DNA from: Eledone cirrhosa
Lineage: Eukaryota
Assembly (NCBI GenBank): GCA_964016885.1
Contig: OZ024740.1
Span: 273,110,001 to 273,174,000 of the forward strand
Direction of reading: 5' to 3'
DNA length: 64,000 nt
Part shown: piece by piece, positions 22,528-24,021 of the stretch
How the letters are laid out: every line of letters begins with the position of its first letter
Numbering within the stretch: position 1 is the first letter of the stretch
Made by a program: the position numbers and the translations under genes
The notes under the pieces: model-generated
The model's database searches: none
The model's input: the letters and a program-made list of their open reading frames with translations, nothing else
Told to the model about the DNA's origin: nothing

Positions 22528-22760
22528 CAAAGGGTTTGTGGTAAGGAACCAGATGGACCATAATGCACCAGAGTACTCAATACTTAGGGTAGTAGAGTGG
22601 GGAATAGGAAAAAGTATGACCCCGACGGCAGAACTCAAGCCGTTTCGTCGGCTATTTCTGGACTAAATTAGTATTTTTAGTCTGGTAAATAAAAAAATTA
22701 GTCCAGAAATAGCCGTCGAAACGGCTTGAGCTCTGCCATCGGGTTCATACTTCTTCCTAT
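22527..22760 (-). mobile_element. Family A fold-back element
   Basis: Same sequence as 10263-10456 in opposite orientation with a longer centre; (TA)n on both sides. Confidence 0.85.
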
Positions 22761-23061
22761 ATATAAATATAATATATATATATATATATATATGTATATA
22801 CAAAAGGAAATTTCGCTCTACATGGCTAAATACAATAAATGTAATCTGAGTTTTTCGCATATTAATAATTGTTTCTACTTTTGGAATATCCCCTGCAAGG
22901 AACAGTCAGATAAAATTTACATAGTCTTTCTCCTTAGCCGTAGAAATTAAACGGGGCTAGGTTTAAAATGTAAGTTTGAAGAAGAAATGTATATAAACTT
23001 TACCAAAATTATTCTAGTCCCGACTATCGACAGTTTCCCTCGTACTTTGTTGATATATATC

Positions 23062-23622
23062 TGTAGCGACTAGCGCCACCTTGCCCTGGGAGAAAAAAAC
23101 TGATTGGAGTTACTTCCCGTTGAATTATAGAGGATTCCTTGAACTTCCGGTCTAGGGATTATAAAGGAGGGAGAAAATAGACATCTTAGCTTATTTGGCG
23201 ACCGACTCTCGGACAGTTCACTCACGAGCGAGTTTGTTAACCTTATTATATCTGTATCGAATTAAATTAGTGTTGGCCTGCAGTGGCGTTTACCAAAGTA
23301 AATAACCCTGACTCCACATCAGAAGGCTGCGTGTTCGCATCACGTCGGGGTCACCACTTTAGTGAATTGGTCACAGGGTTATTTACTTTGGTAAACACCA
23401 CTGCAGGCCAACCACTAATTTAATTCGATACAGATATAATAAGGTTAACAAACTCGCTCGTGAGTGAACTGTTCAAGAGCCGGTCACCAAATAAGCTAAG
23501 ATGTCTCCTTTCTCCCTCCTTTATAATCCCTAGACCGGAAGTTCAAGGAATCCTCTAGAATTCAACGGGAAGTAACTCCAATTAGTTTTTTCTCCCCGGG
23601 CAAGGTGGCGCTAGTCGCTACA
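23062..23622. mobile_element. Fold-back element of two inverted Gypsy-like LTRs around a tRNA-Trp copy, with 4-bp TSD TATC
   Basis: Starts TGTAGCGA and ends TCGCTACA; ~250-bp inverted arms; TATC at 23058-23061 and 23623-23626; minus strand reads LTR...TTCACTAAA-G-TGGTGACCCCGACGTGAT (Trp PBS); TATAAA at ~23160. Confidence 0.9.
23308..23356 (+). pseudogene. Retro-copied 3' part of mature tRNA-Trp(CCA), positions 28-76 including the CCA tail
   Basis: CTGACTCCAcATCAGAAGGCTGCGTGTTCGcATCACGTCGGGGTCACCA matches the conserved metazoan tRNA-Trp 3' portion as recalled; anticodon CCA at 23314-23316 and terminal CCA at 23354-23356. Confidence 0.92.
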
Positions 23623-24021
23623 TATCCAATCCTGGTATTATCCATGAGGTTTCAATCTTATCAAGAGACTCCCTTAAGAGGGCTAACATTTCTACAGTGA
23701 TCGCCGCCAGAAATGAATTCAAAATGGGTAAGAATCATCACATGGCCAGCGGCCAAAGTAGAAGGTTGTGAATGGCAGGCCAGATGGCAGGTAGGTTGGC
23801 TGATACAAAGAACAGTTAGATACCGCCTAAGGTTTACTCGACCGAACGGAAGTATAGAATAAATCCATAGGCATATATATGTATATATTTAGACATAGTC
23901 ACAGATACATATATGAGTGTGGCTACCTTTCACGGTGTGGCTCAATGAAAAAATTAATTAAGCAAATAATTATTAACCAGAGCTATATAAAATTATAAGT
24001 TTGAAGAACAGTCAGATAAAA

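Follow-up and report, generated by a model that had tools for sequence, protein, structure and literature searches.

The window analysed here, a 64-kb stretch of Eledone cirrhosa DNA, contains a short element (23058..23626) in which two LTRs of one retrotransposon family lie head to head around a partial copy of the primer tRNA, tRNA-Trp(CCA). We regard it as highly probable that this is a single insertion, generated by over-extension of strong-stop DNA on the mature primer tRNA, a template switch at a 3-nt match, and insertion by the element integrase. Read along the minus strand, a 265-bp LTR is followed by one G, by the complement of tRNA-Trp from position 76 to position 28, and by the reverse complement of the LTR from position 249 to position 1 (Table 1). 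The two arms share 95.2% identity across 250 nt, differing by 10 substitutions in 248 columns and by two one-base indels; both U3 tips adjoin target DNA, and the second LTR is not preceded by a polypurine tract. The TATC flanks form a direct rather than an inverted repeat, for which the chance match of two random local 4-mers has P = 0.008. The initial annotation had described this same order of LTR, G, Trp primer-binding site, continued tRNA match, inverted LTR and TATC duplication at 23058-23626, and the structure is borne out, as are the CTG join, an end near tRNA position 26/27, the double U3 ends and the integrase-type 4-bp duplication. The inverted LTR is indeed shortened at U5, but by 16 nt and not by the ~18 nt given earlier. 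ARAGORN detected no tRNA genes in the 64-kb window, and an Rfam scan returned only two miRNA-family matches, far below gathering scores, which we rejected as hairpin look-alikes produced by the inverted-arm hairpin. Seven public read runs are listed, none of them as an RNA source, and four (one study) contain 8-27% of sampled words; in these, the left flank and arm drew mostly 90-99% matches from repeats, none of them spanning.

Table 1. Features of the head-to-head LTR element, in window coordinates
Feature	Position	Strand	Basis
Left target-site duplication, TATC	23058..23061	+	sequence
Second LTR arm (LTR 1-249) with outward U3 tip; U5 truncated by 16 nt at its end	23062..23310	+	alignment
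3-nt microhomology CTG, common to LTR 247-249 and tRNA 28-30; genome-unique junction	23308..23310	+	
Copy of tRNA-Trp(CCA), very likely in its mature form, positions 28-76 with CCA end	23308..23356	tRNA sense +, cDNA sense -	
tRNA position 37: C here, G in 69/69 gene copies examined; likely m1G37 misread	23317	+	
tRNA position 58: C here, A in 68/69 gene copies examined; likely m1A58 misread	23338	+	
18-nt Trp primer-binding match (tRNA 76-59); only 11 nt in full-length parents	23339..23356	-	
Single spacer base (G) between LTR and primer site, as in parent	23357	-	
Full 265-bp LTR, TGT...AAA, assigned to CsRn1-type Gypsy by clade marks, U3 tip outward, no polypurine tract in front	23358..23622	-	
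Right target-site duplication, TATC	23623..23626	+	sequence

The arm belongs to a retrotransposon family of the animal's own 3.0-Gb genome, where a search with the arm yielded 838 candidates, the best 40 of which were scored. Among these best 40 of 838 were solo LTRs with 4-bp duplications, 3' LTRs preceded by a polypurine tract, and 4.7-kb elements with direct LTRs. The parent copies L076 and L077 combine direct LTRs, a polypurine tract, an 11-nt Trp site, the order RT-RNase H-integrase and 4-bp duplications, and thus supply the parent which the initial annotation had expected a search with the arm to find. Duplications of 4 bp also flank L144, L154, L141, L200, L219 and many solo LTRs, and the parent LTR termini are TGT...AAA. 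In full-length copies the primer site lies one base past the LTR and matches tRNA-Trp for 11 nt only, so even the 18 nt matched in the window exceed the parental site. The parent shows Pfam RVT_1, RT_RNaseH and rve in Gypsy order, with RVT_1 and rve falling below cut-offs in broken pieces, while the protease is represented by a DTG motif only, without a Pfam match, and the gag signature CX2HX9CX3C is found in the ORF L077:1523-2224. All of this comes from parent copies that are interrupted by stops and frameshifts. The marks of the CsRn1 clade, as given in the available part of its description, are a tRNA-Trp primer site, a 4-bp duplication, a CHCC gag, and LTR ends of TGT...AAA or TGT...ATA (PMC2582038). 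By these clade marks, rather than by an RT tree, we assign the arm as the LTR of a CsRn1-type Gypsy family. Considered instead as terminal repeats of a DNA transposon, an alternative raised at the outset, the arms prove to be retrotransposon LTRs, with a Pfam rve integrase in the parent. The family also includes a second LTR subfamily of ~450 bp (L171, L180, L193), which has its first 56 nt and its internal region in common with the 265-bp family. At the 5' ends of nine parent copies (L077:1359-1385 and eight others), the 11-nt site leads into 8 nt of complementarity to tRNA 59-52, a stretch that resembles the lentiviral primer over-extension sequence as presented in the available part of PMC13191261.

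Mature tRNA was very likely the template of the sequence between the arms, with reverse transcriptase passing its normal stop; this reading follows from the CCA end and from errors confined to positions 58 and 37. An 18-mer taken from the tRNA part matches the genome exactly at 92 places, which resolve into two gene clusters, single genes, and dispersed tails linked to LTRs. The 69 tRNA-Trp gene copies examined all carry G37, and at position 58 they carry A in 68 cases and T in one, with position 57 variable; the CCA end, present in the window core, is absent after every one of the 69. Relative to the tRNA-Trp genes of this genome, the core differs at positions 58 and 37 only, and two mismatches falling on exactly these positions among 48 sites would be expected with P ~0.001, the sites having been named from prior knowledge. 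The core starts exactly at the primer position, one base past the LTR, and lacks tRNA positions 1-27. Positions 58 and 37 are usual sites of tRNA methylation, and we take positions 37 and 26 of tRNA-Trp to be m1G37 and m2,2G26 sites. In the parts available of the respective papers, reverse transcriptase errors are documented at m1A58, m1G37 and m2,2G26 (PMC11417395), human tRNA-Trp is described as carrying m1A58 (PMC6380271), and plus-strand strong stop at m1A58 is documented (PMC8599865, PMC13191261); m1G37 on tRNA-Trp is not stated in the corresponding part of PMC10275265. The suggestion that synthesis had read through position 58 is therefore upheld by the CCA end and by the misreads at 58 and 37. 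As a side observation, tRNA-Trp(CCA) genes and variants form tandem clusters at G000:C4:353401161-353489285 (~56 pattern matches) and C4:277407648-277443959 (~9).

Comparable tails occur in other insertions, and nine long CCA-ended tails were compared: eight from 40 rows, reaching position 34 or beyond, and L005, added by hand, with L137 and L061 left out because of deletions. These tails differ from the genes at position 58 in seven of nine cases, at position 37 in three of nine, and in 13 of 421 comparisons at other sites. When the window's own tail and the pattern-selected positions 39-56 were removed to correct for bias, 6/8 tails differed at position 58 (P 9e-7) and 2/8 at position 37 (P 0.055; P 0.01 against genes), against 10/231 elsewhere. 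The family-wide error excess is strong at position 58 and borderline at position 37. Eight of the nine tails end at positions 27-30. The ninth (L129) continues to about position 9 with a mismatch at 26, so the stop before 26 is not absolute, and the proposition that no tail passes position 26 is refuted by this copy. In L129:1300-1619, an LTR of another family is followed by nearly the whole complement of tRNA-Trp, with misreads at 58 and 26, and by an inverted U3 tip; read in the opposite direction, it would place both internal Pol III boxes ahead of LTR sequence. The exact read-through pattern has 162 genome matches, which we rejected as a count of 162 events, given that two LTR families inherit an extended tRNA match. 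Among the 30 matches fetched, 16 (L079, L087, L096 and 13 more of L079-L108) and nine (L082, L085, L086 and six more) belong to these two other LTR families, which were left out of the tail statistics because their match is inherited. Both are multi-copy, with ~30-32 nt of inherited tRNA-Trp match past the LTR, and in one of them position 58 is fixed for a base that the genes do not have, which looks as though a former read-through product had turned into the primer site of the family.

The window element itself is solitary. Its junction 16-mer has one match in the 3.0-Gb genome, and no second full copy was found among the best 40 of 838 candidates. As the junction is single-copy, the element is not an amplified MITE-like element; the conjecture of a multicopy, MITE-like element with a tRNA core fails on this unique junction 16-mer, and on sisters that each differ in junction and core. 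The architecture, as distinct from the element, does recur. An exact U3-tip 16-mer has 121 genome matches, of which 100 are listed, in 86 loci, and all of these loci were examined. Head-to-head insertions, bounded on either side by a U3 tip and by copies of one 4-bp direct repeat, were counted at 5 of the 86 loci among the matches listed, and when their junctions and duplications were compared, as had been proposed for any further inverted-LTR copies, every junction was different; three of the five, again among the matches listed, have a primer-tRNA core. Fetched flanks were mostly ~1.3 kb, so that longer head-to-head products could be missed.

The five insertions are individually distinct. 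The window element, with its TATC duplication, has a tRNA core to position 28, whereas L005 consists of an LTR, a tail to position 30 and an inverted U3 tip of 6-10 nt within an AGTC duplication. L166 has 17-18 nt of primer tRNA and a TATA duplication, which is uninformative because TATA sits inside a TA run. In L173 (CATC) two LTRs are joined at a short perfect palindrome without a tRNA core, and L194 (CCTC), of the longer LTR subfamily, likewise has no tRNA. Since L173 and L194 lack the tRNA core, read-through is not required for the head-to-head architecture, and is one route among several to such insertions. L239, initially considered as U3-U3 ended, was dropped as it terminates in an ordinary U5 end, and L002, L170 and L174 were not counted, as each has an inverted U3 tip with the other end degraded or not found. 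Two further structures came from other searches and lie outside the 86 loci: L155, in which inverted LTRs enclose a tail and 270 bp of other DNA, and L062:1328-1661, a palindrome with U5 outer ends whose centre falls in the anticodon loop of the tRNA; its two arms share one position-58 misread, and AACT is found at either end. In L144, L154 and L200 the over-long end jumped into the interior, leaving deleted elements with direct LTRs and duplications. L165:581-1549, L078, L154, L162 and L239 have normal outer ends and duplications, together with interiors that are scrambled or inverted immediately after a primer match of 17-21 nt; these scrambled interiors are repeated template jumps of the strong-stop end.

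We propose the following origin for the window element. Plus-strand strong-stop DNA would have copied U3-R-U5, entered the primer tRNA, and misread positions 58 and 37, probably at methylated bases, before stalling just before position 26, presumably at m2,2G26. Too long to pair with a primer site of 11 nt, the 3' end probably primed instead at CTG in the U5 of a plus-strand LTR, either its own or that of a second molecule, and the primed strand would have run off at the U3 tip. Run-off exactly at this tip suggests that plus-strand DNA was the template. A fold-back hairpin has one integrable end only, so a further step would be needed to complete the opposite strand: two molecules may have primed each other, or the hairpin may have undergone strand displacement. 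Integrase would then have joined two U3 ends to the target, producing the 4-bp duplication. Lacking both a polypurine tract and a directly repeated R, such a product would not be copied again. Both arms have the same two minority LTR alleles, which are found together in 9 of 40 LTRs, and the arms differ by 4.0%, inside the 1.5-5.7% range of seven ordinary LTR pairs. Alleles and divergence thus fit one insertion event from one parent lineage, without separating fold-back from two-molecule priming.

Between these two ways of priming we see an even balance. A purely intramolecular origin, in which strong-stop DNA folded back onto the U5 it carried, as the initial annotation had proposed, and a second plus-strand primer later opened the resulting hairpin, accords with the minority alleles of the two arms, with the anticodon-loop centre and paired position-58 misread of the L062 palindrome, and with L165, a partial fold-back into U5. 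Two RNAs of one parent would nevertheless share alleles as well, and 7/7 ordinary LTR pairs agree at these two columns too; moreover, a hairpin offers only a single integrable end, and the second arm of L005 is only 6-10 nt long. Post-insertion rearrangement, whether a reverse insertion nested in a solo LTR with later deletion or an inverted-duplicating replication template switch, is suggested by the many scrambled and deleted copies in the family. We judge it unlikely, however, as U3 tips are exact at both ends, the flanks are not inverted and present the same non-palindromic 4-mer as a direct repeat, the outcome of nesting would be a U5 at one outer end or a pair of unlike duplications, and the CCA end and the errors at 58/37 would be unexplained.

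The remaining alternatives are less probable still. A genomic tRNA gene or tRNA-derived SINE could in principle have supplied the tRNA part, as large tRNA-Trp gene clusters exist; but the genes lack CCA and have G37 in 69/69 and A58 in 68/69 copies, the piece begins exactly at the primer position one base past the LTR and lacks positions 1-27, and its exact variant occurs in no gene or SINE among the 92 18-mer matches, which together make such a source very improbable. We rate just as low an amplified, MITE-like non-autonomous family moving as a unit: long inverted arms, a duplication and similar architectures elsewhere in the genome are what it would predict, yet the junction 16-mer occurs once, the best 40 of 838 candidates include no second full copy, junction and core differ in every sister, and a polypurine tract is absent. 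An assembly artefact, in the form of a fold-back or palindromic read chimera, is the least credible explanation. Although the centre of the element is known from the assembly alone, its arms differ at 12 places, the boundaries of the inversion coincide with the LTR tips, the flanking repeats are direct, and four other loci among the matches listed follow the same logic with different junctions. Over-extension on the mature primer tRNA, followed by template switching and integration, is thus the account to which we adhere, and the element is best read as a by-product that was able to integrate but led no further, of a sort which the parent family has generated more than once.

The LTRs of TRIMs are directly repeated, while MITEs, fold-back DNA transposons and DIRS elements have long terminal inverted arms like those of the window element. 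In contrast to these last three groups, the arms described here correspond to a retrotransposon LTR, the parent having an rve integrase, and the element is single-copy. TRIMs, including the tRNA-containing Helenus, are similar in being short, non-coding and LTR-bounded, with a 4-bp duplication in animals and tRNA-like sequence, and are described in the available text as families in which two LTRs enclose a primer site and a polypurine tract (PMC10886601). The window element shares with them a primer-binding site (23356-23339), but its LTRs are inverted instead of directly repeated, a polypurine tract is absent, and its junction is single-copy. The tRNA-derived portion of Helenus serves as a promoter within the LTR (PMC10886601), whereas the tRNA piece in the window lies between the arms and lacks positions 1-27. 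Closer to the parent are the CsRn1-clade elements PwRn1 and AgCR, which, as far as the available part of PMC2582038 describes them, are like it in an 11-12 nt tRNA-Trp site, 4-bp duplications, TGT...AAA, a CX2HX9CX3C gag motif and an integrase that is last in pol. Unlike those elements, the window element is composed of LTR and primer-tRNA sequence only, with its LTRs inverted.

The nearest mechanistic parallels are retroviral. Over-extended strong-stop DNA of retroviruses is alike in that synthesis passes m1A58 and meets further stops deeper in the tRNA, and in the available parts of these reports, mostly in vitro and cell work with HIV-1 and MLV, such products are unable to complete transfer and to integrate (PMC8599865, PMC13191261). 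The window product, by contrast, is integrated, with an integrase-type duplication and a second U3 end. An MLV circle with a tRNA between its LTRs (Colicelli and Goff 1986, cited in PMC12220202) and tRNA-Gly adjoining deleted HIV proviruses (PMC12220202) similarly represent tRNA copies joined to LTR DNA as by-products of reverse transcription. In the part available of that source, these cases differ in that the tRNA is not the primer, the circle is not integrated, or the insert has no direct repeats (PMC12220202), whereas the window has the cognate primer tRNA between inverted LTRs, and a 4-bp duplication. Primer over-extension, tRNA copies in aberrant retroviral DNA, and tRNA-containing TRIMs are therefore already known; an integrated head-to-head element of LTR, primer tRNA and LTR was not found in the literature searched, in which older subscription papers are thinly covered.

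Over-extension has been known mainly from retroviral test-tube and cell work, where it is described as blocking integration. Integrated cases with visible misreads indicate that over-extended products can gain a second integrable end. Their tails may also constitute a record of which primer-tRNA bases were methylated in the germline. Head-to-head LTR insertions are, in addition, a putative source of long hairpins from which small RNAs silencing the family could arise, and repeat annotators could mistake such insertions for MITEs. The element studied here looks like a single-copy dead end, mechanistically informative and recurrent only as an architecture. A broader scheme, which we offer tentatively and consider possible rather than probable, is that CsRn1-type elements, with their 11-nt primer site and non-canonical U5 end, possess a regular side pathway which rescues stalled or over-extended strong-stop DNA as LTR-only, two-U3-ended molecules. 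If so, then integrase might insert such molecules in ~1/20 events, seeding long hairpins against the family's own LTR as a built-in source of silencing RNA, and the tails would preserve, much like fossilised tRNA sequencing, the methylation of positions 58, 37 and 26 in the germline.

Several other features lie around the element, within a 3.0-Gb genome that is microsatellite-rich. Just left of the element lies a very high-copy repeat (window:22560-22870) with an internal inverted part at ~22610-22755. Further left, a 1033-codon open frame on the minus strand (window:15648-18749) reads, by eye, like a non-LTR retrotransposon reverse transcriptase. To the right, two frames on the plus strand were likewise assessed by eye, and we take that at window:28411-29325 to resemble a DNA-transposon-like protein, and that at window:34921-36495 to be, presumably, a Helitron-type Rep/helicase remnant.
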